Source: Candidatus Magasanikiibacteriota bacterium (lineage in GTDB: Bacteria; Patescibacteriota; Patescibacteriia; Magasanikbacterales; GWA2-37-8). Taken from it: a stretch of 64,000 nucleotides of DNA. Each line of letters opens with the position of its first letter. The stretch's first letter is position 1. Under the pieces are notes generated by a model that saw nothing but the letters and a program-made list of their open reading frames with translations, was not told the origin of the DNA and did not search any database. Location of the stretch: the NCBI GenBank assembly GCA_017991415.1, contig JAGOQR010000001.1, positions 277,992 through 341,991 on the forward strand, read 5' to 3'. A program made the translations under genes and the position numbers. Shown piece after piece: positions 8,907 to 61,015 of this stretch.

Positions 8907-9305
8907 ATGAACTTGCCTCCAAACTCAATTATCGCTTCTGGACCAGTCATTATAGAAGATGGCAAAGTTTTGCTTAATCGTGAACAAAAGGAATACGGAT
9001 CAAGTTTGTTTATGATTCCAGGTGGCATAGTAGATGATTTTTCTATTCCACTTGAAGAAACCTGTAAACGAGAAGTGAAGGAAGAACTAGGAATTGAAAT
9101 AAAAATTATTCGTCCATTACGTACACTTATAGTAAAAAGGCCAGGGACAGAAAATAAATTAGCCATACTGACCCATTACCTAGCAGAAAGAGTTGGCGAA
9201 ATTAAGCCTGGCGCAGAAACCATAGAATGGGGCTGGTTTGATATTCACAACCTACCAAATAACTGTGCGCCGAGTATTTATGAAATTGTAAAAGATGTAA
9301 TGTAA
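8907..9305 (+). CDS. NUDIX hydrolase
   Basis: Nudix box GGIVDDFSIPLEETCKREVKEELGI. Confidence 0.8.
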   Translation: MNLPPNSIIASGPVIIEDGKVLLNREQKEYGSSLFMIPGGIVDDFSIPLEETCKREVKEELGIEIKIIRPLRTLIVKRPGTENKLAILTHYLAERVGEIKPGAETIEWGWFDIHNLPNNCAPSIYEIVKDVM

Positions 9306-20136: not shown

Positions 20137-23100
20137 TTAATTGGTAGGAGCAGCGTAAATAAAGTTTGCTGGGTTGGTTACAATAGTATTTACATTTAAA
20201 ATATCATCATCTGTTATCAAATTAGACCCAGATGGCTTATTGATATTAAATACTTGCCAATACTTGGCACTTTGATTATCCGAAGGAGCTGCTGCTTGAA
20301 AATAAAAAGTTTTTACCGGGGTACCAAACCGATAGAAGTTTCTATCTTGATTATTAGATCCTTGGCCACCAGATTCAACCAGAGTTTGAGACTCAATTGT
20401 ATTAATATCATTTTCTGGCAAATAAACGTCCACCTTCATTCGAGCCGTGTTTTTAAATTGTCTTATAGCTACACTAGGGGACTTTACATAAAAGGAATAA
20501 GTATCACCTTCCATTGCACCAATATCTACCGTAAATGATTCTGCGTTAGTCTGCCCTACCGTACTGTTAAATCCATGATACCAAATACCATACCAGCGTG
20601 CATTTGGCGTATTATAGTAAGTAACACCAGTGGAATATTTCTTTTGCAATGGATTATCACACGCCAAGCCTGATGTATTACAGTATGAAGCACCTGTAAT
20701 TTCTGGATTAGGAACGAATGGGTTGACCACACCTCCAAAAAAATCTTCGGGGCCTACCCAACTTACTACAATTCGCAAATCATTATTTCTAACAGTATTT
20801 CGAATAATTGGCGATAGCACAAAATCATACTGCCAGCTAGCAGGAGAAGCCACTACCGTAAAATCAAACGGTCTAAACAAATCACGATTTAAGTATGCCA
20901 AATATTTCTTACTCCTATCCTCTCCTGCTGAACATGTCGGATTACTACTTACTAAAGCATTCCCTGCAGCGTACGGATTTAGCAAAGAATACGAAGAAAA
21001 ATCAGTGGATGCCTGATCTTTAATCGCTTTGCCCACCAAAGGAGACCCTAGTGTATTTTGATCACAATTTGTCTTGGCTGTAAAAAAGTCAAAGAACGCT
21101 GTTATTGGCTGGCAATACCCTATCGACAAATAAATAGAACTACTAGTAAGCTCTTTGGTAAAGAGAGGGTCCTTTTGAGCAGCAAGGACAGTAGAAGAAG
21201 CAAGAACGTTAATTAAGCCACCACTTACACTCACCCCATTGGAATCCACACCACAACTTACACAATTTCTTACAACACCCAAAGAACAGTCACCACAAGT
21301 CTTGGTTCCTTTTTTTAATGTATGAGGTACATATGGCTCATTTGCACACTCTAGCTCTTGATACCCATTATGGGCAAGATCTTTGGTAAAAAGCGTAGTG
21401 CTGTTTGTACTTGTTGTCGAAGCATAAATTACCCCGCCAGCCATATCACATCGTTCCGAATTCTCAATAATACCATTACCACAATACTGGGAAGGTTGGA
21501 CATCAATACTATTCTGACAATCAGCCGAACAATACGAACAACTTTGACCATATGCAGGGGTACAGGCTCTACCATTATTTGCCACACCACGATCACATGC
21601 TTCATTTGCATCTACAATATTATTTCCACAAGAACCGCTCGGTAGATTAGTTGCGACAGGCGTAGTAGTCGGCAGACAAAACCAATTTCCTTGGTAACTA
21701 TTTCTAACTTCATCTTCGGATAAGACACGCTTATATATTTTTATCTCGTCAAGACTTCCTGAAAAAATATTTGTATAATTTCCAGCTGAACTTAAAGACG
21801 CTCCAATAATTGCTTGCGTATTCGATTTATTCATAAAAGAAACTGGCCCTGTCGAAGCTTTGGTATTTTCTAGATTTCCGTTTATATATATTTTTGCAAT
21901 GTTATTTGTACCTACCCGCTCAAATGTTCCTACTATATGAGTCCATACATTTAATGCAATTGCAGTATTAGAATCAACACCTGTTGCCAAGCCGTTATTC
22001 CATAAATTAAATCGAGCTGTATGGCCAGTAGAAGAAGCATTTAATTCTAACCCGTATCCTACACCAACGCCTGGCCCACCTTTTTCTATAACACGGGCAT
22101 ACAACGTATCATAATGAACAGGTTTAACCCAAGCCTCAACACTAATACTCTCAGGTGTTAAGAGGCTAACATGATCACTGACCTGTAAATATTTTGGCTT
22201 ATTAATATCTGAGCCAAAATTCAAACCATTCCCAAACCGTCCTTGGTCTATAAGCGGACAATGCAAGAGATCGCATTTTGCATCATTATCATTTACCGAA
22301 TTGTCTGGTGTAGAAGTAATGCCGCTTATCTTTTTTAGCTCTTCAAACTGCCACCAAGCAAGAGCATACTGATCTGCTTTTTTACAATCACTTGTACAAA
22401 CTTTTATGCCCGGCTGATTATTAATCGTACATACTTGTGAGCCCTCACAACTTTCGCCGTGCTCCGTCTGTACAATGTTATCTCCACAATACGGACCCCA
22501 ATTCTGACAATCCCACGCACAAGAATTTTGCCGACCAGCTACACTATATCTTTCCTGTCCTGACAATCCTGAATCACATACTTCATAGGCAGACTCTACA
22601 GTGCCATTACCACACCTACCCAACGGACTCAGACCAGTACATAACAAATTACAATGATTATATTTACCATTTAAATTTCCATCATCACAGGTTTCTCCTG
22701 ACTCTTTTACCCCATTACCACAGCTGCTTAAATTACTGCAGAGCGTAGTCGAGGCAACCCACTGACAAGAACTATTACAAACTTTTAAATTTTTTATACT
22801 ACCCACACATCCTGCCTGATATTCGACCCTACCTTGAGGATCACACTGCTCTCCTTTATCTAAATTTAACTTACCATCGCCACAGACACCTGATTGCACG
22901 GTTGAAATTTCTTGATCAAAATTACACACACCAGAATCTTCGTTAATTTTAACAACGCTCGTACTCACAAAACTAGCTACGAAACTATTAAAATTATTTG
23001 GAGTAATACCAGTATCTTCAAAATGAGCTCTTATAGTATAAGCACCTGTACTCGAAGAAACTATATATCTATATGCATAGGACTCTCGATTGCAGGCAAA

Positions 23101-23436
23101 ACTAAAACGACGATCCGCTGTACTCCAGCCAGTAGTAGGGTCATGCAAAATACAAGCCTCGCCTCCTTCACACTGACTATCATTTAAACAAAAACGGTTG
23201 GTGTTTACCGCACAGGTACCTGCCAAACCAAGCTGGTTGATAGGATCGGTTGGTAGAGCTTGACCTAAGGCAGTGCCGAGCAAAGACCAGGATGGCCACA
23301 CACTTAAGGTTTGACCAACTAAATATGTCCCCTCTTTTAAAGGAGGAATGTTAGCAGCTACAGCTTTATAAAAAAATAAAAAACTTAGCGCCAAAACAAT
23401 TATAGTTGAAGATACAAATAATTTTTTATTTTTCAT
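20137..23436 (-). CDS. secreted 1099-aa surface protein with Cys-rich CGNG...E.CD repeats and a LamG/concanavalin-like domain
   Basis: Cleavable signal peptide; six or more repeats of the form CG[DN]G-x5-7-E-x-CD; a central LamG_3-like segment ending [19 protein letters not shown]. Confidence 0.6.
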
Positions 23437-23472
23437 AATACAGCAGTATTATACCACACTATTTTCCAGACT

Positions 23473-26400
23473 TTACAAACCAAGCAACGACTGAATCTCG
23501 CTCAAATCTCTCAGTCGTATATAATTTCTTTTTAACTTATCAATCTGCACCGAACATACTTCTCCATTGTTACAGTCTAAATCTGTTTGACAGGCTGTTG
23601 TAGCACCAGGATTTTCCATAGTTGCTCCACAATAGCCATAATTAGTTAAGTTAGTGTTAAAGCTTAGATTACTAATTAATTGCTCAAACACCGCTCTAGT
23701 CTCGGATTTAGCATCCGCATTAATACTAAACAGGTAGATATTAGAGAATAAATTATATGAGGTGTCAGAATAATTGAGTGCATCCACATAAATATTATTT
23801 CCATCAGTTAAAGCATCATATCCATCTATTTTTGTAGTCTGCATATTGCCAGTAAAGCCTTGCCCGCCAAGAGCACGGTCGTTTTCAAACCACTGCGAAA
23901 CTGTTAAATGTTGCGGATTAGAGAAAACAGAAATACCAATCGCATCATTATTTTTAGCATTGGTAAAGATAAATCTTTTGAGACTTGATGTAGGACTATC
24001 TGCCACCACAGGAGCGTCTGCTTGCACCGCTGGTCGTAAATAAGGAAGGTCGTCAGAAACACCAAACACACCTTTATCCGCGCAGTAGTATGTTCTAAAG
24101 TTAAAATAGCCACCAGCCTGAGAAGACGGAATTGTAAACCCATTAAATGTATCTAACGATAAATCGTACTGATCATTATTATTTAACTTATCTTCATATG
24201 GGAAAATAATAAATGGACCATTACCACCGATATATAAATCTTTAGGCGGCCATGGATTCTCGCATAAAAACACAATCGCTCTTGACTTGCCTGTAGCTAC
24301 TAAACCAGATTGCGAGGAATAGCTATTATCTGTTATAACTGCCGAAGCTCGAACATCAATTTCGCCATTACGATTTTGAGCAGTAATAATATTTAGAGAA
24401 GAAGTAGTGCTAATCAAATTAACATACGGATTTCCAACAGGCTGCCATAAATAATTCCAAGAATAATAGCCTGGGATCGGCTGAATTCGAGCCGAATTAC
24501 TACTGTAGGCCGAAGCCAACAAGGTAGAACTGGCATTAACTCGGTTGAAATATACTTGCGACGGTTCTACCGAAACCTTCTCAACTTCACAAATATTAGT
24601 TCCTGTAATAAATTTCCAGCTGATTGGCTTGGTAGTGTTGCCGTTATTACCAATTTTCATACCCTGTTTACTTGCAATAACATCTTTTAAAGCAACGAAA
24701 TAATCCGAATCAACAGCAAGTGGTTTTGAAAGTTTGAAGACTACTTTGCTGAGCGAATTACTAATAGGCTCTACATCTGCTTGTCCGATATCTTCGCCCG
24801 CACACCATCTCGTAGAACGAATTTCTGTACGCAAAGCCTCTACAGACTGACCAGAAATACTTCTAAAGAAATTAACTACTCGAACAATAATTTTCTTATA
24901 CCAAGGTATATTACTAGACGAATCAGATTGCGCAGCAAGGGCTAAAGCAGTAACATCTTCACCAGTAGCGCAGGTAGAAGAGGTTGTGCCTTTAGCAACT
25001 ATCACATTATTACGAACCGTTGCAGGATCAATTTGCTGGTCAAATACTGCTTCAATAGACGTATTTGGACAAATATTAAACCTAGCGGTAGAAGTAGATC
25101 CCGGAAATACATTTAATAATTTTGGACGCATATAACAACACCCGTTATTCGCCACGGCCCAACCTGACCCCATTCTTGCCTCGCACTGCGCATCCGTTGA
25201 ATAACCACATTGAATTACAAATTCACCACTATCAGAAATACTACCACTCGTCGTATTTTCATTGGTACTGGCGATAATACTGCTTTTTTGAGTAGCAGGA
25301 ACTCCTGTTGGAGTGCCCAATCCTACACCTGTTACTAAAGCCCAAGGATTTACTCCATTATGGACACTTGAAAGATTTGTTTCACAGAATGCGTCCTCAC
25401 CTATCCCCGCAACACCATCCCCACATAAAGAGGGCGCTGTGTACAATAAAGACGAACCACTATTTTGTCTATCTGAACCACAGCCTTCACTTCCAGAAGC
25501 ACATTCGGCATGAGTACTATCTTTATATAGACAGAAATTGTCACACCAATCCGCTTTTCTTCCACCCCCTAAATCACAACCAGCATCTTCATCAGGACTC
25601 ATAACACCATCACCACAACGACTTACTGCGCCTTTACACGCAGCATCAAAAGCACCTTGAGCAAAACCTCCCTTACTCGCTGCATTAGCATAACACCAAG
25701 AATTTGAAAGTTTACTACCCTGATGTAAACAATTCTGAGAACAATTCATACTTGAAGCTGAAGATGTTGCAGAAGAAGCAATACCTAAATCACAATCCTC
25801 TCCTAATCCAACTGAACCATTACCACAAATAGAATCATTTACCGAACTAGCGGCTGTAGAAGCAGCAGATCCTGTTCGCAAACAATTATTTGTACAGCCA
25901 GCTGCAGAAGCAGGTATACCTGGATCGCAATTTTCACCAAGGTTTGGCTCAAAAACCCCATTACCACAAGTTGAAGTACTACTATTTCCTAATCGACGGC
26001 AATCCAAACCACAACCTGCTCCACTAAAAGGAGCATCACAGTCCTCACCGGCTTCTACCACACCATTACCACAAACTGGTACAGCTGTTGCTACCACACT
26101 AATACTACTACCTTTTCTAACACAATTTTTATCACAATACGGATTATTACCACGACTACTAAAGCTTCTTACCCGAGCCACAACATTTGGAGCTGAGGAA
26201 ACATCCGAGGAGCTCCAATTCCAACTCACAGACCAAGGATTTAACTTTTGACCTTGAGTGCTACAAGTATCTGGAGAAGAATAAGGCTGGGCATTGTACA
26301 GTTTTTTACTATCAACAGAATCAGCAATAAATGTTTGCGGCAAAACATCCACCCGACTTATTTTACATTTTTCTGCTTTGGTTTTGAATCTCCAGCTAAA

Positions 26401-29400
26401 TTCTTTATTGTATGGCTTGGAGAATGTATTAGGATCTCCCAAACGAGAAGCGGACCATAATAAATTTGGTGAATTAGTATCTGTGCTTGAAGCTGACAAA
26501 ACAACCTTGTAAATAGTATTTGGTTCTAGCTCAGAAGAATCAAGAGTTGAGTTGGCAATTTTTAAAACTTTATAATTTTCAGCGCCATCTAAAACGACAT
26601 CTACAGCCACTAACACTGGTGTGGTGCTCAAACAATTTTCGTCATTACATTTTAATAATTTTATTGGACCACTAATCGCAGACCCAGGCAAATTTCTTCT
26701 TGACATAGTGGTATTAAAACGAACACCTACTTCGGAGTTTGTACATGACTCCAAACATTTTGGCCAAAAATCTACCACTTCAGGATTATTTAAATCAATA
26801 GTAAGCGGACTTACTCCGATGTATGTAGAAGAAGCAATGGTGGCTTGCGCTGAAATATTTATACTATTATTTGGATTTACCAAGCCTACCCCTACCGTAT
26901 TAGCTAAGGCCGAAACTTTTGCTGAATCGTTATTAGTTGAATAAATATCAGCATACGTATTATTTTGAGTATCCCAAGTCCAATCAAACGCATCGGTATT
27001 CATAACCACACAATGCTGTGTCGTTAAACCATGACCACTATATACCACATCTTCACCGTCGCTAGCTGCGGTCTGGCGATGTTTGATAGGCTCTTCTAAT
27101 ACAGAGGTCCAATAACTATACGGGGTAATAACCACCTTTTTCATTCTGCAATCTTGAGAATCAGCTCGAAAAACAAAGCAATACGCAGAATTTGGACCAC
27201 AAGGTTTATCTTGGGCTAGTGGAACTGTGGAAGTGCCAACACCCGCACTAATACCTGACTTTAAAATAACTTGATACCAGGTATTATCTTTCCATTTTCC
27301 ACTATTATAGGCAGCATCTGGATTAAGTTGTAAATAGCTAGTATTTTCTGTGCTGAGAGCAGGGTCTAAGTCTCCTACACCACTAACTGGAACAATTTGA
27401 GATGAGGTACACGTTCGAGCTGCCTCATCTATTGTATTGGCCTGACATTCATTAATAACAAAATTCGATCGAGGAATATTGTTTATATTTGGAGAACTAA
27501 ATTCCACCACAACCGAAGCAGTACGACAAATATTATGATGGGAATCATTTGTAGAAACATCCCACTGAGCACTTGGGGACGGACTTGGAATATTTAAACC
27601 CAAATCTGTATTATTATCACATCTTTCTATAACACGAGGCACGCGCGGTATGTCTTTCGTGCTTATTCGCCAAATATACCCAGCTGAAAAAGTCTCCCCT
27701 TCACACAATTCATTGGTTGGTCGACACAAACCAGCTTCAGACCCAGAAACACAACAATGAGTATTTGGAACAGTACAGGTATTATTATTTCGAACACAGT
27801 CGAGCACAGAAAAATTAGCGGGATTGCTTATTCTATTATCCGAAGCTCTTGATACTACTACTGGCCCACTACGAGTACCAAGTGGTGGCAAGGTCGAGAC
27901 TGATTGACCAACAATCAAATTTGATACTGTAGACAAACTAGATAATAAGCGACCAGAGACAGCTGTTGGAGAGGCACCTTCAGTCCAAAAATAAACAGAT
28001 GGATTTGGCCCAAAGTATTCTCCTGTAATTTGTATTTTAGGAGCATCCGCAGAAAATGGTACTGGCCCCGACAGCGGATTAATATTACAGATACCCGGAT
28101 TTGGCTCGCCACTATCTAAGTTGAAAATTGGCCCAATCTGACTCCATCCTTGCGAAGCATCTGCAGGACGAACTTGCACAAAATAACTTTTACCAGCCTC
28201 ACCACTTCCAGAAGGGAATTTTACAATTATTTGATTATTTGACCACGTATTACGACATCCAACAGGAAAATTAAAATTTCCTTCGATAGCATCACCAGGC
28301 TGACCATTTACGTTTTCTTTAAACCAAACTCTACCAATTTGATTACCAAAATTATTACCGCTAATTGTTATATACGATCCTTTAGCTCCATGATCTGGAG
28401 AAATTTCAGAAATTACTGGGGCAGAATCACTTAGGCCTTGGTCTACAAAAAATCTAACACTATTACTCTCTAAATTATTTTGAGTAATAGCAACACCTAC
28501 CGGACCATTGTTAAGTAAAGGCACTCTTGTTCTTACCAAAGTATCAGTCCAATTTGCCAAGGTAGTTAAAACATTTTGACCAGCAAAAGATACTTGCCCA
28601 GGCGCATTTCCCAATCTTTTTCCTACAAGCGAAACTTCTGTACCAGGTAAACCATTAGCAGGATTAACCGAACACAAGCCAGGACGAACCAAATTATTAA
28701 CTTCGAAATCACTAATACGTGGACCAAAATTATCATCAGTAGAATCAATAAATTTACCTGCACTTGTTGTTGCTGTCTCAACCCTAATTGAGCCACTGGT
28801 CGCATTAGGTGGAACTTCTGCAATAATTTGCCAAGGCTTCCAATTTGACGACCCGCAGGCAGTAGCGAGCGGAGCTTCAATATTATTTATAAAAACTTTT
28901 CCAGGGTTAGTACCAAAATAACTTCCAGAGATTGTTACAAGAGTTCCTGGCCCACCAGACAAAGGAGAAACATTATTAATTCTCATTTTATCTATACAGG
29001 TACCTGCTTGTGTATCACAATAGCCACTACTACACTGCGTATTAGTTGTACAAGCTGATCCTGGACAAGCGCCACACTCACCACCACAAGCCGGAGGACC
29101 AGCTTGCACCTCTCCTAAATCTGATTGCAGATTACCATCAAAACAGTGCTGCGGTAATAAATTTACTTTTGTGCTTGTTGTATAAGAAAGGGCTGACCAA
29201 TCATAACCTGTTGCAGAAAGTGTATGTTCCCCCACTCCAATACCAGTTGTTGGCCAAGCAACTACCACCGAACCCGATTGCTGACAACCTGAAATAGTTC
29301 TACTGCCAACAAAATAACTATCTGCGCTGAGATCTATTTTTTGAACACCATTATCGTCGGTATATCGTACTGTTACTGGCACCGAAGATCCTGATTGCAA

Positions 29401-30261
29401 TAAATCAGAAGCAATTGGTTCAATTTTTATTTCTGGAGGCAACCTATCTACACCCTCTCCTGTAGTAAATTCTACATTTCCACAACCAGCTCTAATAGCA
29501 CAATTTAAGGTCATTTGCCCATCTAAATTTTTGACTGCGCTTGGATTTTTAAAATGCAAAATATATTTAGTAGAAGCAGCCAAACAATCTGCAGCACCAC
29601 TACCACAATCACCCGCTGGTACAAAGGCAGCAGTATTTTCTGTTAACAAACTCCATTGCCCCGCCTGCTCTTGTCCACCTTCTGTTTGCACTACTATATT
29701 ACCATCAAGAGTTCTTACATCTACAGCTCTATTAAAAGTAACCGTCACGTGAACATTGCGAATACACATAGCGCCTCCTTGTGGCAGGCTATCAACATAA
29801 AAAATTCCAGATGGAAAATATGGATTGTCACCTGTTGGTGAACCATTACCAGAATTAAAATCACCGCCAGTGGCATCGACTAGTCTACTAATAACAAAGC
29901 TAGCAATAGCATAGGAAGACAAAATTATAACAAGACCAATAACCGCATTAAGTAAAATCTTCTTAGCTTGAGAAACTTTCTCCTCATCACCACCAGAAGT
30001 CATCCAAACAACCCCGCCATATAAAATAAGTGCCAACGCAACTATACCAAGAAGCCCCAAAGCTGTGCGAATAATTCGCGCAACTACTAATCGTATGTCT
30101 GTAGATGGTAGGCCAATATTATTTTCTATTGGCTGAAGCCCCAAATCTGGAGCGCTCGTTGTTTGAGCCAAAACAAAATCTTTACCAAAAAACAAACTAA
30201 CGCCAACAAGTATTGCAAACAAAGACAGGAAGATAATTTTTTTTACTTTATTTTTTTCCAT
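23473..30261 (-). CDS. giant 2262-aa surface protein with a VirB2/TrbC-pilin-like N-terminal module plus IPT/TIG-like domains and Cys-rich repeats
   Basis: N-terminal signal peptide (cleavage near AQT), then two hydrophobic helices joined by a VWMTSGG loop, mirroring VirB2. Repeated P-x-S-G-P-x-G-T-x-V-T-I-x-G-x-x-F segments (IPT/TIG-like). Five tandem CGNG-x-E-CD Cys-rich repeats near residues 1397-1630. An SD-like AAGGAG lies 8 nt upstream of the ATG. Confidence 0.6.
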   Translation of the reverse strand: MEKNKVKKIIFLSLFAILVGVSLFFGKDFVLAQTTSAPDLGLQPIENNIGLPSTDIRLVVARIIRTALGLLGIVALALILYGGVVWMTSGGDEEKVSQAKKILLNAVIGLVIILSSYAIASFVISRLVDATGGDFNSGNGSPTGDNPYFPSGIFYVDSLPQGGAMCIRNVHVTVTFNRAVDVRTLDGNIVVQTEGGQEQAGQWSLLTENTAAFVPAGDCGSGAADCLAASTKYILHFKNPSAVKNLDGQMTLNCAIRAGCGNVEFTTGEGVDRLPPEIKIEPIASDLLQSGSSVPVTVRYTDDNGVQKIDLSADSYFVGSRTISGCQQSGSVVVAWPTTGIGVGEHTLSATGYDWSALSYTTSTKVNLLPQHCFDGNLQSDLGEVQAGPPACGGECGACPGSACTTNTQCSSGYCDTQAGTCIDKMRINNVSPLSGGPGTLVTISGSYFGTNPGKVFINNIEAPLATACGSSNWKPWQIIAEVPPNATSGSIRVETATTSAGKFIDSTDDNFGPRISDFEVNNLVRPGLCSVNPANGLPGTEVSLVGKRLGNAPGQVSFAGQNVLTTLANWTDTLVRTRVPLLNNGPVGVAITQNNLESNSVRFFVDQGLSDSAPVISEISPDHGAKGSYITISGNNFGNQIGRVWFKENVNGQPGDAIEGNFNFPVGCRNTWSNNQIIVKFPSGSGEAGKSYFVQVRPADASQGWSQIGPIFNLDSGEPNPGICNINPLSGPVPFSADAPKIQITGEYFGPNPSVYFWTEGASPTAVSGRLLSSLSTVSNLIVGQSVSTLPPLGTRSGPVVVSRASDNRISNPANFSVLDCVRNNNTCTVPNTHCCVSGSEAGLCRPTNELCEGETFSAGYIWRISTKDIPRVPRVIERCDNNTDLGLNIPSPSPSAQWDVSTNDSHHNICRTASVVVEFSSPNINNIPRSNFVINECQANTIDEAARTCTSSQIVPVSGVGDLDPALSTENTSYLQLNPDAAYNSGKWKDNTWYQVILKSGISAGVGTSTVPLAQDKPCGPNSAYCFVFRADSQDCRMKKVVITPYSYWTSVLEEPIKHRQTAASDGEDVVYSGHGLTTQHCVVMNTDAFDWTWDTQNNTYADIYSTNNDSAKVSALANTVGVGLVNPNNSINISAQATIASSTYIGVSPLTIDLNNPEVVDFWPKCLESCTNSEVGVRFNTTMSRRNLPGSAISGPIKLLKCNDENCLSTTPVLVAVDVVLDGAENYKVLKIANSTLDSSELEPNTIYKVVLSASSTDTNSPNLLWSASRLGDPNTFSKPYNKEFSWRFKTKAEKCKISRVDVLPQTFIADSVDSKKLYNAQPYSSPDTCSTQGQKLNPWSVSWNWSSSDVSSAPNVVARVRSFSSRGNNPYCDKNCVRKGSSISVVATAVPVCGNGVVEAGEDCDAPFSGAGCGLDCRRLGNSSTSTCGNGVFEPNLGENCDPGIPASAAGCTNNCLRTGSAASTAASSVNDSICGNGSVGLGEDCDLGIASSATSSASSMNCSQNCLHQGSKLSNSWCYANAASKGGFAQGAFDAACKGAVSRCGDGVMSPDEDAGCDLGGGRKADWCDNFCLYKDSTHAECASGSEGCGSDRQNSGSSLLYTAPSLCGDGVAGIGEDAFCETNLSSVHNGVNPWALVTGVGLGTPTGVPATQKSSIIASTNENTTSGSISDSGEFVIQCGYSTDAQCEARMGSGWAVANNGCCYMRPKLLNVFPGSTSTARFNICPNTSIEAVFDQQIDPATVRNNVIVAKGTTSSTCATGEDVTALALAAQSDSSSNIPWYKKIIVRVVNFFRSISGQSVEALRTEIRSTRWCAGEDIGQADVEPISNSLSKVVFKLSKPLAVDSDYFVALKDVIASKQGMKIGNNGNTTKPISWKFITGTNICEVEKVSVEPSQVYFNRVNASSTLLASAYSSNSARIQPIPGYYSWNYLWQPVGNPYVNLISTTSSLNIITAQNRNGEIDVRASAVITDNSYSSQSGLVATGKSRAIVFLCENPWPPKDLYIGGNGPFIIFPYEDKLNNNDQYDLSLDTFNGFTIPSSQAGGYFNFRTYYCADKGVFGVSDDLPYLRPAVQADAPVVADSPTSSLKRFIFTNAKNNDAIGISVFSNPQHLTVSQWFENDRALGGQGFTGNMQTTKIDGYDALTDGNNIYVDALNYSDTSYNLFSNIYLFSINADAKSETRAVFEQLISNLSFNTNLTNYGYCGATMENPGATTACQTDLDCNNGEVCSVQIDKLKRNYIRLRDLSEIQSLLGL

Positions 30262-36065: not shown

Positions 36066-37627
<1,562 letters not shown>

Positions 37628-37993
37628 GAGTATTGATTTTTGTTCACCCTACACAGCCGAAGCTGCAAGGGCTGATGAACAAGTTATCATTTTGGATTTA
37701 TTTATTATTTATACTCGAAATAACTCGAGTTTTTTCGGATAGACTTTTTTTGTGGTCTTTGTCACATTTATATTGTCAATGTACTGTTCCAATATTTATT
37801 TCTAAATTTGGAAAACTTTTTTCAATCTAGTTACCTGACTAGAAAGAAAAAAGAGAAATCAAATCTTGATTGCTCTTTTTTCTTTCCCTCGATTATTACG
37901 AGGCGGGCAGTTTCCAGATGGACTTGCCTGAGAATATTAGTTTTAAATGAAATGTTTTTTTGCGGGAATTTATTAGCTTTTTTTAACTTCTAC

Positions 37994-38022
37994 ATATTAA
38001 CACTTAGCCAAAATATTGTCAA
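37994..38022 (-). promoter_or_regulatory. candidate rRNA promoter (TTGACA-N17-TAATAT on the minus strand) about 365 nt upstream of mature 16S
   Basis: Reverse complement of 38017-38022 is TTGACA and of 37994-37999 is TAATAT, with a 17-nt spacer. A second TTGACAATAT copy lies at about 37775-37784. Confidence 0.4.
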
Positions 38023-38182
38023 CACTCTATATCGAGCCTTTTATAAACAGTCTGTGGATAAGTAAAATATAGTCAAAAATGCCATATTTAAGCCAAATTC
38101 TGGCCTAACTTCTCTACCCTACCATAGCCAGTACGGGCAGGTACCAATTCACCTTTTTTACATCTTTCTTAAGTATCTTTAA

Positions 38183-38881
38183 TTATTTACTTTGCTCTCT
38201 GCGCCACTCTTCTATTTTTTTATGATCACCAGATAATAAAACATCTGGCACTTTTATTTTTCTTTTTTTTACTACTACTACTTCTGGTCTTGTATAATGT
38301 GGATACTCAATAAATTTTGTAAGTTGTTCTTTACCCATTTCACCAGCATCATTAAAGGATTCATCTTTTAGAGATTCTTGCTTACCGATAGCGCCTGGCA
38401 ATAATCTTGTTATCGCCTCCATTACCACCATAGCTGGGACTTCTCCACCAAATAACACATAGTCACCAATAGAAATTTCTTCATCTGCAACATCGGTCAT
38501 TACTCGTTCATCTATACCTTCATAGCGCCCACAAATCATCACAAGCTGATCAAGCCCTGACCATTCACGTGCCATAGCTTGCGTAAATTTTTTGCCTTTA
38601 GGATTAAAAACAATTACTTTTGTTTTTAATTTTTTGCTCTTACTTTTTATCTTTGACGTAATTTTTTGCACCGCCTTATAGATTGGCTGAAACATAAGCA
38701 CCATACCTGCCCCACCACCATACGGACGGTCATCTACCGTACCTCTTTTATCATCGGCAAAATCACGCAAATTATGAACATTAATAGAAACTAATTCTTT
38801 TTTTTGTGCACGACTAATTAACGCCTCCGTTTTAAAGCTTTCAAAAAATTGCGGAAAAATTGTAATGATATCAAATTTCAT
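38183..38881 (-). CDS. trmD: tRNA (guanine37-N1)-methyltransferase
   Basis: MKFDIITIFPQFFESF...DDRPYGGGAGMVLM, a SPOUT TrmD signature. Start taken at internal Met; the 5' extension in the ORF track runs into the G+C-rich island. Confidence 0.9.
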   Translation of the reverse strand: MKFDIITIFPQFFESFKTEALISRAQKKELVSINVHNLRDFADDKRGTVDDRPYGGGAGMVLMFQPIYKAVQKITSKIKSKSKKLKTKVIVFNPKGKKFTQAMAREWSGLDQLVMICGRYEGIDERVMTDVADEEISIGDYVLFGGEVPAMVVMEAITRLLPGAIGKQESLKDESFNDAGEMGKEQLTKFIEYPHYTRPEVVVVKKRKIKVPDVLLSGDHKKIEEWRREQSK

Positions 38882-39002
38882 ATATCTAATAATATTACTC
38901 GAAAAAAAAATATTAGGCAATCTATAAAAATATAGAAGCCCGCCGCGGTTGCGACAGGCTTCGCTGCTTCGAGCCGCCCACAGGCCTGAGGCCTGATGGC
39001 GG

Positions 39003-39752
39003 CTACTGTGGATTCTTCGGACCACGAGCGTCGAAGAAATCCGGGAACGTGGCGAAGAAGATCATCAGGATCGAGAGTGTCGTCGCGGCTCGGTAGAGAG
39101 CACCTTCATGCTCACCCTTGCGAATACGCCGCAAGAGCTCTGACACCTCAATGTACTCAGCCTTGTAGATCAGCTCGCCGTGCTGCGGATTGATGTTCTC
39201 GATCCGATCGAGATCGACTTCGACGAACAACAGGTCTGTCCAGCTTGCCACAAACGTTGGACAAGCGTTGTGGTAGGGGTGATTGGGCTGAAACACTTCC
39301 ACCACCGCAGCACCGGTCTCCTCACGAACTTCGCGCGTGGCAGCGTCTGGTCCAGACTCGAACTTCCCCACGACCTTGTCCTTGAAGCCCATGGGAATCT
39401 GACCAACCACGACCGCCTCACGACTTCTCGGATTGCGAGGATCATCTGCATGAGGCCGAGCCTCATGCATGACTCCGATCTTGATCGCGCCATCTTTGGT
39501 ACGACCCCAAGCCACGACGTTGACTGATGGCGCCTCACGATACTCCGGGCGATCAAACGCCGGCGTACCGTCGACACCACAAACAACAACGTTGCGCACT
39601 GCGCCGAACCGAGACGTTGCTTCCCAGTTAATACCCGCGAACTGGTCGCGCGCACCATCTGGACGATCCACGTAGAGGGTCCAGTTGACATCTGCCGGAC
39701 GACCAGCGAAGAACTCGGACCCCACATCGCTCGGTTTTTTTGTAGCACTCAT
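39003..39752 (-). CDS. G+C-rich NUDIX hydrolase (ADP-ribose pyrophosphatase-like), probably horizontally acquired
   Basis: Nudix box ...GKFESGPDAATREVREETGAAV. AAGGAG SD 8 nt before the ATG at 39752. The gene body is visibly G+C-rich, unlike its neighbours. It occupies the position rimM would hold between the KH-protein gene and trmD. The C-terminal roughly 20 aa extend into A+T-rich DNA, so the exact stop is uncertain. Confidence 0.55.
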   Translation of the reverse strand: MSATKKPSDVGSEFFAGRPADVNWTLYVDRPDGARDQFAGINWEATSRFGAVRNVVVCGVDGTPAFDRPEYREAPSVNVVAWGRTKDGAIKIGVMHEARPHADDPRNPRSREAVVVGQIPMGFKDKVVGKFESGPDAATREVREETGAAVVEVFQPNHPYHNACPTFVASWTDLLFVEVDLDRIENINPQHGELIYKAEYIEVSELLRRIRKGEHEGALYRAATTLSILMIFFATFPDFFDARGPKNPQ

Positions 39753-39944
39753 CTCTGCTGCTCCTTTGAATCCAATTTGAACCCAAATGGTTAGTTGGAC
39801 AAAAATTACAATCAAAAATAATTACAATTTTTACCCAACTAACTTATAAAAAGAACAGCTCACTATAACACTAAAACTGACTTTTGTCAATATACAAAAC
39901 CACCCTCGGTTTCCCGAGAGTGGTTTAAATTTTTTGTATTTGTT

Positions 39945-40298
39945 TTAGATGTTCAGATTGTCCACAGCACTTGTATCAATCATTTGGTTATCCATTGGCT
40001 GGCTATCCATTTGATTCATGCGAGGGGCTCTTCCACCAGCTGGCTCATTGATCTTTAGGTTAACGCGAGCATTGTGCTTAGCGCCAACAATCTTGAGCAA
40101 GGTGCGGATAGAGCGAGCGGTTTGACCCTGGCGACCAATCACATAACCCATATCGGCTGGATTGACATCGAGCGTGATCAAAACTCCTCTTTCGTCTATG
40201 GTGCGAACTGTTTTTACATCATTAGGATTGTTGACAATCGATTTTACGAGTGTCTCAACAAACTGTTGATCTGCTTCCATATGTAATTCATTCTTCAC
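39945..40298 (-). CDS. KH-domain RNA-binding protein (YlqC/UPF0109 family)
   Basis: VIGRQGQTARSIRTLL, a KH GXXG-type motif. Conserved position downstream of rpsP. Confidence 0.75.
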   Translation of the reverse strand: MKNELHMEADQQFVETLVKSIVNNPNDVKTVRTIDERGVLITLDVNPADMGYVIGRQGQTARSIRTLLKIVGAKHNARVNLKINEPAGGRAPRMNQMDSQPMDNQMIDTSAVDNLNI

Positions 40299-40392: not shown

Positions 40393-40755
40393 TTAAGCGG
40401 CTGGAGCTGTTTCTGTAGCGGCGGCTGGAGCAGCTGCCTGGGCAGCTTTTTTCTTTTCAGCAATTTTAGCAGCACGCTTGTCAGAAATATATACAGATTT
40501 CTTTTTCTTTTCACCACTAATAATTCCTGACTGCACAAATAAGTTATGTAAAGTACTAGAAGATTGAGCACCTTTTTCTAACCAATATTTAATACGGTCA
40601 GTATTAGGCACAAAACCATCAGCTTTGGCGCGAGGATTAAAAGTTCCTAAAATTTCTAAATTTCTTCCTTGAGTATCTCTACCTTTTTCGGCAATAACCA
40701 AGCGATATGTAGGCGCATTCTTTTTTCCAATTCTTTGCAAACGAATAGTTAACAT
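40393..40755 (-). CDS. rpsP: 30S ribosomal protein S16 with an Ala/Lys-rich C-terminal extension
   Basis: MLTIRLQRIGKKNAPTYRLVIAEKGRDTQGRNLEILGTFNP. Confidence 0.9.
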   Translation of the reverse strand: MLTIRLQRIGKKNAPTYRLVIAEKGRDTQGRNLEILGTFNPRAKADGFVPNTDRIKYWLEKGAQSSSTLHNLFVQSGIISGEKKKKSVYISDKRAAKIAEKKKAAQAAAPAAATETAPAA

Positions 40756-59805: not shown

Positions 59806-59850
59806 ATAAAAAAACAAAGCATTCAAATCTAAGTTTGAATGCTTTGTAAA
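59806..59850. terminator. A/T-flanked hairpin terminator between the G+C-rich gene and the histidine kinase
   Basis: CAAAGCATTCAAA-TCTAAG-TTTGAATGCTTTG, preceded by an A7 run and followed by TAAAATT. Confidence 0.5.
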
Positions 59851-59888
59851 ATTCGCGAACACCCCATCCGTGCTCGCGGAGAACCTCA

Positions 59889-60923
59889 TCAGAACCTCGG
59901 ATGCTGACCGAGGTTGGGAGTGATACCCAGGAACCTTGCGCGTTGTTCAAACACGCCATAGCTCACCAGGGAGCTCCTACCGAACACCGACACCACCAGC
60001 GCCTCGAGGAGACAGCCGGGGATGTCACCCTGCTTGAAATCCGGCAAAAGCGGTAGGTACCGCAAGCCCTTGCCTTCTCCCTTGCTAGTAATCTTGCAGA
60101 CACCTGCAAGCTTGGCCCGCAAAGACTCTACCATCTCACGGCCCATCATCGGGTGGGTGTCATCAAGAACAACAACACCGTGCTTCAACTGCTCGATAGC
60201 AGCCTTGGCATCATCGCCCTTGCCCGTGAGAACAACAGCAAGATTCGCTTGCGCGAGGATCTCGCTGTTGCTAGTCTTCAACAACTTCCCTTCTCGCTCG
60301 TCGTAGCCATACCTGGGATCGAGCGCAATCACACAGCTAACACACTCTTCGCGGGCCAGCAGCCTGACGACCTCAGAACCAGTGTGACCAGCGCCACCAA
60401 TGACGGCGACAACCACACTCTTCCACGCACGCCCATCTTCTCGTTCGGGAAGACGATCTATGATTGCCTCCCTGACAGAGTTAAGCACCGTGTAGCAAGT
60501 GCCAAGCATCCCCGTCACACAAGGCTCGACAGGCGGCGCCTTTGATGCGGCAACAATCCAACCAGGCAATTGCCCAGCCAGTGCAATCACAGCGCTCGGA
60601 AAACGAGACTCGACCTCGCGAACGATCTCTAGAGCAAGGTGAGGATTCTTAACGATCTCCTCCCTGCTCTTAGTAGTGGCCAGGATCAAGCCGCGACGGC
60701 GCTCATGACCACTCTTGAAACGAAGGAACCCGATGAGCCCCAGCAGTCCGATGATTCGCTCAACGAACTTGGGCCAGCAGGCTCTCTTGTGACGCTCGTC
60801 CCCGTAGACGAGGAATACGAAATCCGGCTTGTAGACAAACCGAATGACGAGAAACCAGAGGATCTCCAGAGTGATGAGAAACCCCTGCCGAAAGAAGTTG
60901 ACCAGTAGCCGCTTGAGCGACAT
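59889..60923 (-). CDS. G+C-rich NAD(P)-binding Rossmann-fold protein with a hydrophobic N-terminal region (function unknown), probably horizontally acquired
   Basis: GGAGG SD 5 nt before the ATG at 60923 (the ORF track starts two codons earlier at GTG). Central VAVIGGAGHTGSEVVRLL dinucleotide-binding motif. Gene body is G+C-rich, flanks are A+T-rich. Confidence 0.45.
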   Translation of the reverse strand: MSLKRLLVNFFRQGFLITLEILWFLVIRFVYKPDFVFLVYGDERHKRACWPKFVERIIGLLGLIGFLRFKSGHERRRGLILATTKSREEIVKNPHLALEIVREVESRFPSAVIALAGQLPGWIVAASKAPPVEPCVTGMLGTCYTVLNSVREAIIDRLPEREDGRAWKSVVVAVIGGAGHTGSEVVRLLAREECVSCVIALDPRYGYDEREGKLLKTSNSEILAQANLAVVLTGKGDDAKAAIEQLKHGVVVLDDTHPMMGREMVESLRAKLAGVCKITSKGEGKGLRYLPLLPDFKQGDIPGCLLEALVVSVFGRSSLVSYGVFEQRARFLGITPNLGQHPRF

Positions 60924-61015
60924 AACCACCTCCCGGTGGGGATCTTACGTTGTAACCACGCTTATTTAGTTACCAAGGATTGGCAAAAAACAAAGCATGA
61001 GTAGTTAAGAATTTA

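Follow-up and report, generated by a model that had tools for sequence, protein, structure and literature searches.

A GC-rich NUDIX hydrolase gene between a KH gene and trmD in a Magasanikbacteria genome: a self-contained transcription unit, probably long resident and of CPR origin

The window, i.e., the whole stretch of 64,000 nucleotides of Candidatus Magasanikiibacteriota DNA analysed here, carries on its minus strand, in this order, rpsP, a KhpA-type KH gene, a 249-codon NUDIX gene, trmD and the 16S rRNA gene (Table 1). The corresponding operon of E. coli and Firmicutes is rpsP-(KH)-rimM-trmD-rplS. The two arrangements share the same-strand order of rpsP, KH gene and trmD, but in the window trmD is followed by the 16S rRNA gene instead of rplS, and rimM is absent: no RimM-like open reading frame (ORF) was found between the KH gene and trmD. 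An earlier reading of this DNA, made from the sequence alone, had drawn attention to a GC-rich NUDIX gene between the KH gene and trmD, and this observation was confirmed by Pfam, by sliding-window GC content and by GC3. It had also pointed to another NUDIX gene in the window with the composition of its host, and this gene is indeed host-like (Table 1).

Table 1 Features of the NUDIX locus and two further genes of the window
Feature	Position	Strand	Evidence
NUDIX gene of host-like composition	8907-9305		PF00293 2e-13; GC 0.37, GC3 0.26
16S rRNA, 3′ of trmD	36067-37626	-	
trmD, tRNA (m1G37) methyltransferase, 3′ neighbour of NUDIX gene	38183-38881	-	Pfam tRNA_m1G_MT 4.3e-56
Intrinsic terminator of NUDIX unit	38935-38962	-	12-bp stem, 8 GC pairs, then TATATTTTTA; terminator scan
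First 3′ hairpin, GC-rich, overlapping NUDIX stop codon	38972-39004	-	inverted repeat I6: 16-nt arms, 88% complementary
NUDIX hydrolase ORF, 249 aa	39003-39752	-	PF00293, 24.5 bits (gathering 21.1), E=3e-5, residues 131-209
Shine-Dalgarno AAAGGAG	39761-39767	-	8 nt 5′ of ATG at 39752; read from sequence
Leader hairpin, ~25 bp, AT-rich, with G-U pairs, in ~105-nt 5′ UTR	39789-39844	-	
Putative sigma-70-type NUDIX promoter, TTGACA-17-TGTTATAGT (TG-n-TATAGT)	39862-39890	-	11/12 consensus positions, extended -10
Intrinsic terminator of KH gene	39897-39926	-	13-bp stem + T-run; terminator scan, inverted repeat I8
KH-domain RNA-binding protein gene, KhpA-type	39945-40298	-	Pfam KH_KhpA-B 4.5e-22
rpsP, ribosomal protein S16, leading the conserved block	40393-40755	-	Pfam Ribosomal_S16 1.1e-16
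GC-rich island, 344-aa Rossmann-like gene	59889-60923		syntenic in three related genomes

The NUDIX gene is a self-contained transcription unit of ~0.96 kb (38935-39890), comprising a promoter, a leader with a hairpin, a strong Shine-Dalgarno site (SD), the ORF and a terminator of two hairpins. Since a terminator closes both the KH gene and the NUDIX unit, transcription of the whole block as a single operon is improbable. A promoter of its own behind the KH terminator, and an SD spaced 8 nt from the start codon, had both been proposed for the NUDIX gene, and both were found. The promoter has been kept in the loci L001 and L110, and a similar TTGACA promoter stands 5′ of most members of the NUDIX family. 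AAGGAGG-like SD sites likewise precede nearly all family members; among the host ORFs of the window such a site is uncommon, being present at the first start codon in only ~3 of 41 long ORFs, though the 16S rRNA ends in CCTCC. The leader (39735-39856) folds with a minimum free energy of -36.4 kcal/mol (z=-5.4; none of 200 shuffled sequences was equally stable), and its hairpin has been kept in L001 and L110, with three pairs that have changed on both sides yet still pair. The first 3′ hairpin belongs to a 3′ module that can be aligned across the window, L001 and L110; the terminator that follows it is identical in L110, and in L001 its place is taken by a different hairpin of compensating sequence. 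A scan of 38800-40000 for known RNA elements of Rfam, covering leader and ORF, gave sub-threshold chance matches only.

The ORF itself has a GC content of 0.57 and the structured 3′ tail (38935-39002) one of 0.72; the value is 0.32 for leader and promoter and 0.15 for the spacer toward trmD, and GC remains above 0.50 throughout 38901-39825 (150-bp sliding window). The GC3 of the NUDIX gene is 0.62 versus 0.299±0.035 in 39 host ORFs (z=9.1), and its RSCU correlates with that of the host at -0.09. Thus, the composition is as foreign-looking as the sequence-only reading had described it, including by the GC3 comparison that had been named as a check. The GC-rich gene at 59889-60923 resembles the NUDIX gene in this respect: the RSCU values of the two correlate with each other (r=+0.42), that of the second gene correlates with the host at -0.30, and A3 is 0.08-0.11 in both.

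The protein has the profile, the catalytic box and the alpha/beta/alpha sandwich by which the NUDIX superfamily is recognised, and it also matches PHROG 1198 (MutT/NUDIX) with E=0.003. Across 20 family members the Nudix box E132-x7-R140 E141 V R E144 E145 T G147 A is invariant; the leading part of the box is non-canonical, as G122 stands 10 positions before E132, with a loop of variable length and low pLDDT, compared with the canonical G-x5-E. Invariant motifs specific to the family include RPHAD(D/N)P and NPNPTF, together with a conserved M-x-A-T-K N-terminus. In the AlphaFold2 (AF2) model (pLDDT 79.9, pTM 0.75), the predicted fold resembles that of the ADP-ribose pyrophosphatases NudF and NUDT5. 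A Foldseek search with this model gave 153 PDB matches at E<=1e-3; the top-ranked 50 are all NUDIX enzymes, and the best are NudF ADP-ribose diphosphatases and human NUDT5 (E ~1e-8, TM 0.52/0.63). The alignments span 200-240 columns against ADP-ribose pyrophosphatases of 190-206 residues and include the N-terminal beta domain (target-normalised TM 0.60-0.66). With NudF of E. coli and Klebsiella and with human NUDT5, the protein shares the predicted architecture of an N-terminal beta-sheet domain followed by the alpha/beta/alpha Nudix domain, and it has the catalytic motif E-x7-REVxEExGA; it differs from them in its low identity (just 13-18%), in the variable-length insertion in the Nudix box and in the family-specific motifs.

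The label "NudF-like", given to the protein at first sight, therefore holds for fold and architecture but not for sequence-level subfamily membership: the only NCBIfam match is nudix_YtkD with 14.7 bits (cut-off 154; E=0.016), and the best hit of a profile search for solved relatives in the PDB has E=0.16. ADP-ribose pyrophosphatases have a conserved proline ~16 residues downstream of the Nudix box. In the NUDIX family P165, 17 residues past A148, is invariant, and P163 is nearly invariant (alanine in the window protein); either may be the counterpart of that proline. The dN/dS of the gene is 0.16-0.21. It can be annotated as a real, expressed-looking gene for a NUDIX enzyme. Judged from the modelled fold, the enzyme may hydrolyse ADP-ribose, or a similar nucleoside-diphosphate-X, to a nucleoside monophosphate and the phosphorylated moiety, and such a predicted pyrophosphatase activity would fit salvage of nucleotides and ribose where de novo nucleotide synthesis is lacking. 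The protein is thus a candidate ADP-ribose or NDP-sugar pyrophosphatase from an uncharacterised, CPR-only NUDIX subfamily, with a bearing on nucleotide and ribose salvage. A role in anti-phage defence was dropped, as there was no PADLOC match.

The family is small and, wherever its members carry a name, confined to the CPR. Database searches returned 119 homologues (identity 38-80%), and all named ones are Magasanikbacteria, Minisyncoccia or Patescibacteria. Loci in species-representative genomes bear a CPR-lineage label in 22 of 27 cases, and of the remaining five, two are records without classification and three are short contigs from MAGs with other labels. Out of 1.84 billion (1.84e9) representative clusters, 161 belong to the family at E<=1e-3 and 52 at E<=1e-30; among those looked up, the single named entry is Portnoybacteria. 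In a neighbour-joining (NJ) tree of 229 columns, drawn without support values, the window protein groups with L110 and L001 (Magasanikbacteria) and next with L002/L111 (Magasanikbacteria). The GC-rich NUDIX protein at L030 was rejected as a member, since it belongs to a different family (hhalign probability 32%, with the Nudix box alone covered).

The site in which the gene lies is variable in related genomes. Among 64 related loci with the KH gene upstream of trmD, the gap between the two is <=250 bp in 45 and >500 bp in 18, the usual spacer of the clade being 60-240 bp between the alignable ends of both genes. Unrelated cargo occupies the spacer in 18 of the 64, and includes a MurA-type EPSP synthase, HicB antitoxins, a HAD hydrolase, a patatin, an NYN nuclease, another NUDIX and ORFs without a Pfam match. 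The KH-trmD spacer is thus an insertion-prone site that has repeatedly taken up cargo. None of the tested cargo ORFs is a RimM. In the window, a search for RimM or its PRC-barrel identified the NUDIX ORF as NUDIX only and found no RimM among 10 mid-size ORFs. The sequence-only reading had placed the NUDIX gene in a "rimM slot"; rimM is nearly absent across the CPR (PMC12641178), and because, in addition, the KH gene and trmD are adjacent in most relatives, the NUDIX insertion displaced nothing. The slot can be retired, as loss of rimM is a CPR-wide trait. The related proposal that this and other GC-rich islands are gene-sized insertions applies to the spacer, but the island at 59889-60923 is not fresh: it is a gene of a CPR family with conserved synteny (Table 1).

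The age of the insertion can be read from L001, which has the same gene order and amino acid identities of 84% for rpsP, 96% for the KH protein, 62% for the NUDIX protein and ~90% for trmD (89% between the window and L030 for the last). Between the window and L001, dS is 1.44 for the NUDIX gene and 0.51, 1.30 and 2.76 for the flanking genes. Hence the NUDIX gene has been part of this spacer throughout the divergence of its flanking genes. Its relatives are all CPR. The lower identity of its protein reflects weaker constraint, dN/dS being 0.21 in the NUDIX gene compared with 0.02-0.06 in the flanks. A recombinational exchange of the NUDIX allele, considered on account of the 62% identity beside flanks at 84-96%, is superfluous, given that dS is comparable and dN/dS higher. 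The closest homologue, L110 (80% identity), shares promoter, leader and terminator with the window but lies in a different genomic context: DNA homology extends from the -35 hexamer through the terminator despite a different upstream gene. Thus, the unit from promoter to terminator can as a whole lie in different surroundings, as seen in one 1.5-kb contig (L110).

Altogether, the gene probably encodes a functional, long-resident putative NUDIX pyrophosphatase of a small family restricted to CPR/Patescibacteria, and probably constitutes an old transcription-unit cassette exchanged within the CPR. The unit would have entered the KH-trmD spacer before the lineages of the window and L001 split, its source being another CPR lineage rather than Actinobacteria; most gene transfers detected in groundwater Patescibacteria run between Patescibacteria (PMC12455944). 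GC-rich codon usage would then be a long-lived property of the family and not a sign of recent transfer. In the favoured form of this history, the gene would have been acquired long ago from a CPR source richer in GC, and its composition would be decaying far more slowly than neutral amelioration predicts. No donor lineage was found; among the sampled loci no flanks match the richest alleles (flank GC at most 0.53, genes up to 0.63). Against import from a GC-rich genome stands the co-inherited leader and promoter, whose AT-richness beside a GC-rich ORF suggests that some force bears on the coding sequence.

Such a force is central to the principal alternative, which is somewhat doubtful: that the gene is native to the CPR and vertically inherited, and that its GC-rich, A3-avoiding codons are actively maintained, in which case composition is silent on transfer. 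Selection might act on codons, on the folding of the mRNA or on how stable it is; or the gene might be subject to a bias of its own, for instance GC-biased conversion at an often-recombining locus. GC3 has stayed high although the dS of the flanks is saturated in three syntenic sets, namely the window with L001 (NUDIX GC3 0.62 and 0.80), the clade L012/L016/L021, and the second island of the window in four genomes. In L012/L016/L021, an island of a syntenic NUDIX gene and a POT transporter has a GC3 of 0.69-0.90, beside flanks with a GC3 of 0.27-0.47 and a dS from 0.8 to saturation. Flux between S and W bases is near balance: 23:21 against an expected 3.5:1 (p=2e-4), and, in the L012/L016/L021 island, polarised changes S->W:W->S of 49:28 against ~6:1 under neutral decay (p=1e-6). 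Parsimony polarisation is, however, biased at near-saturated sites, where AT-rich flank controls give an artefactual W->S excess of 297:88. Polarisation of the window and L110 with L001 as outgroup (12:3 and 21:3 S->W) was not used as evidence, because an outgroup with a GC3 of 0.80 biases parsimony.

Active maintenance also agrees with the finding that members of the NUDIX family have a higher GC3 than the genes around them in 22 of 24 loci (mean +0.135, Wilcoxon p=4e-6), an excess not seen in the trmD control (+0.014, p=0.31), with the non-host codon usage common to both GC-rich genes of the window, with the conservation of the AT-rich leader alongside the GC-rich ORF, and with clade-specific synteny, which favours mostly vertical descent. 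Several observations speak against it. Alleles of the same class in L002/L111 have a host-like GC3 of 0.31, so high GC is not required for function; in L012, L016 and L021 a block of four neighbouring genes is GC-rich throughout, which suits one transfer better; and no mechanism is known. Ordinary translational selection acts in the opposite direction, as the highly expressed host gene rpsP has a GC3 of 0.21, and such selection for high expression was thereby ruled out as the source of the high GC3. The GC-normal alleles (L006, L013 and L025 as well as L002/L111) count against the favoured history as well, and no single history suits all family members. It can be suggested only tentatively that GC-rich, A3-avoiding codons are actively maintained in a subset of CPR-native genes (the NUDIX family, the gene at 59889-60923 and the POT-transporter island) and, jointly and just as tentatively, that such genes are often self-contained units with promoter, SD and structured 3′ module. 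A literature search on GC3 heterogeneity in Patescibacteria found nothing relevant.

The explanation first offered, a recent single-gene import from a high-GC, SD-using donor outside the CPR (e.g. an actinobacterial host of an epibiont) that replaced rimM, is very improbable. A GC3 9 SD above that of host genes, an SD of a kind mostly absent from host genes, and a promoter and terminator of its own are what such an import would bring. No close non-CPR homologue exists among the matches, however, all named ones being CPR, and the window protein is nested in a Magasanikbacteria clade of the NJ tree; the clustering of CPR homologues with it is the outcome that had been named beforehand as speaking against such a donor. 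Nor is the acquisition recent, with synteny in L001 and a dS within the range of the flanks (0.5-2.8). The general absence of rimM from the CPR, with KH gene and trmD adjacent in 45 of 64 relatives, leaves nothing to be replaced, and the promoter and leader are AT-rich and common to three cassettes. The sequence-only reading as a whole is therefore sound in what it said of composition, own promoter, SD and an insertion-prone spacer, and not in the rimM slot, the non-CPR donor and the recency. That the GC-rich segment was chimerically joined from another organism in assembly or binning, as the abrupt composition step at both of its ends might suggest, is next to inconceivable, because one and the same protein, with the same genes beside it, is present in two independent Logan assemblies from different runs, and L001 has the same gene order; moreover, the longest contig recorded in the database for that protein measures 831 kb, and promoter, SD and terminators lie exactly at the junctions.

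The locus is a cautionary case, in that a gene that deviates from the host composition by 9 SD and has a Shine-Dalgarno site of foreign appearance would pass as a recent transfer from a high-GC host. Amelioration theory predicts otherwise than the persistently atypical composition of the NUDIX gene. If active maintenance is true, calls of horizontal transfer based on composition would go wrong for such genes in the CPR, a force specific to these genes would have to operate (mRNA or codon selection, or biased conversion within a common pool of cassettes), and intragenomic compositional heterogeneity would here take an unusual form. Like the genomic islands described in Patescibacteria, the NUDIX unit is a compositionally atypical CPR segment related to other CPR; it differs from them in being one GC-rich gene in an AT-rich genome, in having no mobility genes, tRNA or direct repeats, and in being old, i.e., syntenic in a relative at saturated flank dS (compare PMC12455944).

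As to mobility, the NUDIX segment contains no transposase or integrase ORF, and the unit is flanked by no direct repeats beyond chance. Carriage by phage was rejected: no relative was found on 2.9 million viral contigs (IMG/VR), and the PHROG match is merely a generic MutT/NUDIX one. An alpha-CTD-like ORF lies 5′ of the L110 cassette, and a homologue search with it returned itself alone. Integron gene cassettes are alike in being gene-sized units with a conserved, structured 3′ module, but each unit has its own promoter, neither an integrase nor a recognisable attC core was seen, and the 3′ module resembles an ordinary hairpin pair with an intrinsic terminator at its end; the unit is not assigned to that class. 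The module is not a widespread repeat, as it occurs once in the window, where at least one chance match arises in 22 of 100 shuffles, and 45 matches to it on viral contigs are chance ones, in coding sequence of GC-rich phages in which the hairpin is absent. Four instances of the 3′ module are known, one of which follows an unrelated small ORF that lies immediately 5′ of the L110 cassette, in tandem.

The NUDIX gene lies between a KH gene and trmD, in a transcription unit that is complete from promoter to terminator, as read and scanned on its strand. The GC of the entire window is 0.388; sliding segments of 150 bp rise above 0.50 nowhere but at the rRNA, over 38901-39825 and 59826-60975, and in a borderline 274-bp run (7426-7700). 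The composition step at the NUDIX segment is sharp: the ORF has a GC of 0.57 and a GC3 of 0.62, which is 9.1 SD above the host mean (0.299, SD 0.035; 39 long host ORFs). High GC is confined to the ORF and the structured 3' tail (0.72), as against 0.32 in the promoter plus leader and 0.15 in the spacer before trmD. As composition and unit readout agree with it, the description in the sequence-only reading is accurate: there is a GC-rich NUDIX segment of ~0.8 kb between KH and trmD, with an SD 5' of the ORF and a separate promoter behind the KH terminator, and there is another NUDIX gene, of host composition, at 8907-9305. The junctions of the segment are genuine, because independent assemblies of two sequencing runs contain the NUDIX protein with identical neighbours, the longest contig listed for it in the database being 831 kb.

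Features of the NUDIX locus and of the second GC-rich gene (window positions unless a locus is named)
Feature	Position	Strand	Basis or remark
rpsP	40393-40755	-	Pfam
KhpA/B-type KH gene	39945-40298	-	Pfam
KH terminator	39926-39897	-	strand read and scanned
NUDIX-unit promoter, TTGACA, 17 nt, TG-n-TATAGT	39890-39862	-	strand read and scanned
NUDIX-unit leader, ~105 nt		-	strand read and scanned
Leader hairpin, ~25 bp	39789-39844	-	several G-U pairs
SD AAAGGAG of NUDIX ORF	39767-39761	-	strand read and scanned
NUDIX-domain ORF, 249 aa	39003-39752	-	Pfam, 24.5 bits, slightly over the 21.1 cut-off; ATG at 39752, stop codon ends at 39003
GC-rich hairpin 3' of NUDIX ORF	39004-38972	-	strand read and scanned
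NUDIX-unit intrinsic terminator, then T-run	38962-38935	-	strand read and scanned
3' module, window	38925-39010
3' module, L001	5775-5870
3' module, L110	415-520 and 1425-1496
trmD	38183-38881	-	Pfam
Complete 16S rRNA, after trmD	36067-37626	-
Second GC-rich single gene, 344 aa	59889-60923	-	between argS and a histidine kinase; GC 0.56, GC3 0.65; SD GGGAGGTG

The gene had been taken as a replacement of rimM. Among 80 trmD loci sampled from metagenomes, the KH gene is upstream on the same strand in 64, and the gap between the two (alignment end to alignment end) is at most 250 bp in 45/64 loci and more than 500 bp in 18/64. The large gaps hold mutually unrelated cargo (a MurA-type EPSP synthase, HicB antitoxins, a HAD hydrolase, a patatin, an NYN nuclease, a 2-thiouracil desulfurase, another host-composition NUDIX and ORFs without a Pfam match), and RimM was not found among the cargo ORFs tested. 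According to a survey covering over 30,000 genomes, rimM is almost missing from CPR bacteria and more than 90% conserved elsewhere (PMC12641178); therefore, the NUDIX unit displaced nothing, and replacement of rimM is not supported. Ancestrally, the clade has only a short spacer between KH and trmD, which has repeatedly been the target of insertions. Subtraction of the unit (39890-38935) leaves a spacer of ~105 nt, near the typical empty gap.

Several neighbouring genes in related loci are recorded here. In L031, the next-closest relative (KH 80%, trmD 76%) after L030 and L001, which are the two closest by trmD, the spacer holds another GC-rich mini-unit (1803-2170), comprising a promoter, an 84-aa ORF (GC 0.58; no Pfam match) and a GC-rich terminator. 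In L043, from another CPR lineage, the spacer holds the host-composition NUDIX gene (1952-2473, 173 aa; PF00293, 1.5e-11), which is unrelated. A different GC-rich NUDIX gene lies directly downstream of trmD on the opposite strand in L030 (4897-5550, -; GC3 0.71) and L001 (6757-7482, -; GC3 0.81); these two proteins are 26% identical to each other, and that of L030 matches the profile of the window family at the Nudix box only. In the window, the 16S rRNA gene occupies the corresponding position; it follows trmD where rplS would otherwise stand, after an AT-rich spacer of ~550 bp (16S rRNA gene and spacer, 36067-38183). The occurrence of several independent NUDIX genes beside trmD (window, L030, L001, L043) may be a coincidence. 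L030 also has a 1254-aa Gly/Ser/Thr-rich ORF immediately upstream of trmD.

A recent acquisition from a high-GC, actinobacterial donor, as had been proposed, is likewise not supported. A word-index search gave 119 homologues (identity 38-80%), all those named being Magasanikbacteria, Minisyncoccia or "Patescibacteria group". When 185,579 species, each represented by one genome, were scanned with a pattern, 27 family loci came up, 22 with a CPR-lineage label; the other five, all with CPR-like flanking composition, were two unclassified records and three short MAG contigs (labelled Bdellovibrionales, Gammaproteobacteria or Aenigmatarchaeota). Among 1.84 billion cluster representatives, a profile search detected just 161 proteins at E<=1e-3, of which 52 reach E<=1e-30. 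The family is small and sharply delimited, and no relative was found on any viral contig searched. An NJ tree, in which nesting among high-GC taxa had been expected, groups the window protein with those of L110, a ~1.5-kb contig (80%), and L001, a Magasanikbacteria MAG (62%), followed by L002/L111 (Magasanikbacteria), i.e., with CPR homologues, the outcome which the sequence-only reading had itself named as its refutation.

As to timing, gene order in L001 is unchanged, with identities of 84% for rpsP, 96% for KH, 62% for NUDIX and ~90% for trmD. Between the window and L001, dS is 1.44 for NUDIX (dN/dS 0.21), as against 0.51 for KH (0.05), 1.30 for rpsP (0.06) and 2.76 for trmD (0.02); dN/dS of NUDIX versus L110 is 0.16. 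The NUDIX gene is under purifying selection and, from these codon-level distances, looks equal in age to its flanks, merely less constrained. Replacement of the NUDIX allele, suggested by the discordant protein identities, is not required by the same distances.

There are hints that the unit has moved in one piece. The closest homologue (P0002, in L110) has a small RNA-polymerase-alpha-CTD-like ORF upstream of it instead of KH; despite this difference, DNA similarity to the window starts at the -35 hexamer and continues through -10, leader hairpin, ORF and the two 3' hairpins, up to the end of the contig. The leader segment containing the hairpin (39735-39856) is predicted to fold at -36.4 kcal/mol (MFE; z=-5.4), and three pairs are altered on both sides yet paired among the window, L001 and L110, although three sequences are too small a sample to demonstrate a function. 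The 3' module, consisting of hairpin 1, GCTCGAAGC and the terminator hairpin, aligns in these three loci, occurs once in the window, and in L110 is also found behind the unrelated alpha-CTD-like ORF, in tandem with the NUDIX gene; the stem AAGACCTGC-n4-GGGCAGGTCTT is common to the NUDIX terminator of L001 and the alpha-CTD terminator of L110. Most family members across CPR have a separate TTGACA promoter and an AAGGAGG-type SD. Both GC-rich genes of the window have an SD, unlike most host ORFs (~3/41 within 18 nt of the first start codon), although the 3' end of the 16S rRNA is canonical (GATCACCTCCTTTCT), ending in CCTCC. No transposase, integrase, tRNA or flanking direct repeat was found at the unit. 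The best reading is that the unit would be an old, CPR-internal, self-contained cassette lodged in an insertion-prone spacer. One arm of the leader hairpin shows 86% complementarity, across 21 nt, with the 5' part of the trmD coding sequence (38849-38869, ITIFPQ codons); this may be a chance effect of AT-richness or a regulatory pairing.

The puzzle is the long persistence of GC-rich coding sequence, in NUDIX and a few other CPR-native genes, within an AT-rich genome. In spite of the divergence between the window and L001, NUDIX GC3 still stands at 0.62 in the former and 0.80 in the latter (host values 0.30-0.37), and family members exceed neighbouring ORFs in GC3 in 22/24 loci (mean +0.135, p=4e-6; trmD control +0.014, n=38, p=0.31). 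Ordinary translational selection is ruled out as the cause, because GC3 of rpsP is only 0.21. One candidate is that an old import decays very slowly, or that gene flow from GC-richer CPR lineages is ongoing. This is favoured by the existence of native-looking alleles (L002/L111, GC3 0.31; L006; L013; L025) and by the block-wise nature of the island: in another CPR clade, a syntenic GC-rich block of 3.5 kb begins with NUDIX and also contains two small membrane ORFs and a POT/MFS transporter (L012 1364-4948, L016 5001-8596, L021 1064-3964; GC3 0.69-0.90, flanks 0.27-0.47, flank dS 0.8 up to saturation). The other candidate is that the composition is actively maintained, which is favoured by the AT-rich co-inherited leader, by replication of the persistence and by a substitution flux near balance. 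With regard to replication, the second GC-rich gene also belongs to a CPR-only family (Pfam matches to NAD-binding Rossmann, all weak), and its synteny with argS and the histidine kinase recurs in three related genomes (flanking proteins 76-95% identical), its GC3 being 0.56-0.65 overall and 0.56-0.59 in the three relatives (flanks 0.28-0.45). With regard to flux, polarised synonymous S->W:W->S changes are 49:28 in the block (~6:1 expected from neutral decay toward host composition, p=1e-6) and 23:21 in the second gene (3.5:1 expected, p=2e-4), with the caveat that composition biases parsimony polarisation at near-saturated sites, AT-rich flank controls giving 88:297. Both GC-rich genes of the window avoid A-ending codons (A3 0.08-0.11), and their codon usage correlates mutually (r=0.42; with host -0.09 and -0.30).

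In the family alignment, E132-x7-R140 E141 .. E144 E145. G147 is invariant; RPHAD(D/N)P, NPNPTF and a C-terminal YR are family-specific, and the N-terminus M-x-A-T-K is conserved. The AF2 model (mean pLDDT 80, pTM 0.75), with a variable low-pLDDT loop in the first half of the Nudix box, best matches ADP-ribose diphosphatases (Klebsiella and E. coli NudF, human NUDT5; E ~1e-8, TM 0.52/0.63, identity 13-18%), the N-terminal beta domain lying within the alignments. From this fold match, sequence methods having found no characterised relative, we infer an NDP-X pyrophosphatase, with ADP-ribose as the most likely substrate; membership of the NudF subfamily would hold at the level of the fold only.

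Elsewhere in the window, a 193-aa ORF (1340-1921, -) matches the Translin family (PF01997, 3.7e-18), which is chiefly eukaryotic and archaeal. Two very large ORFs that adjoin each other (20137-30261, -; 1099 and 2262 aa) combine a high GC2 (0.46-0.48) with a low GC3 and may encode surface proteins.
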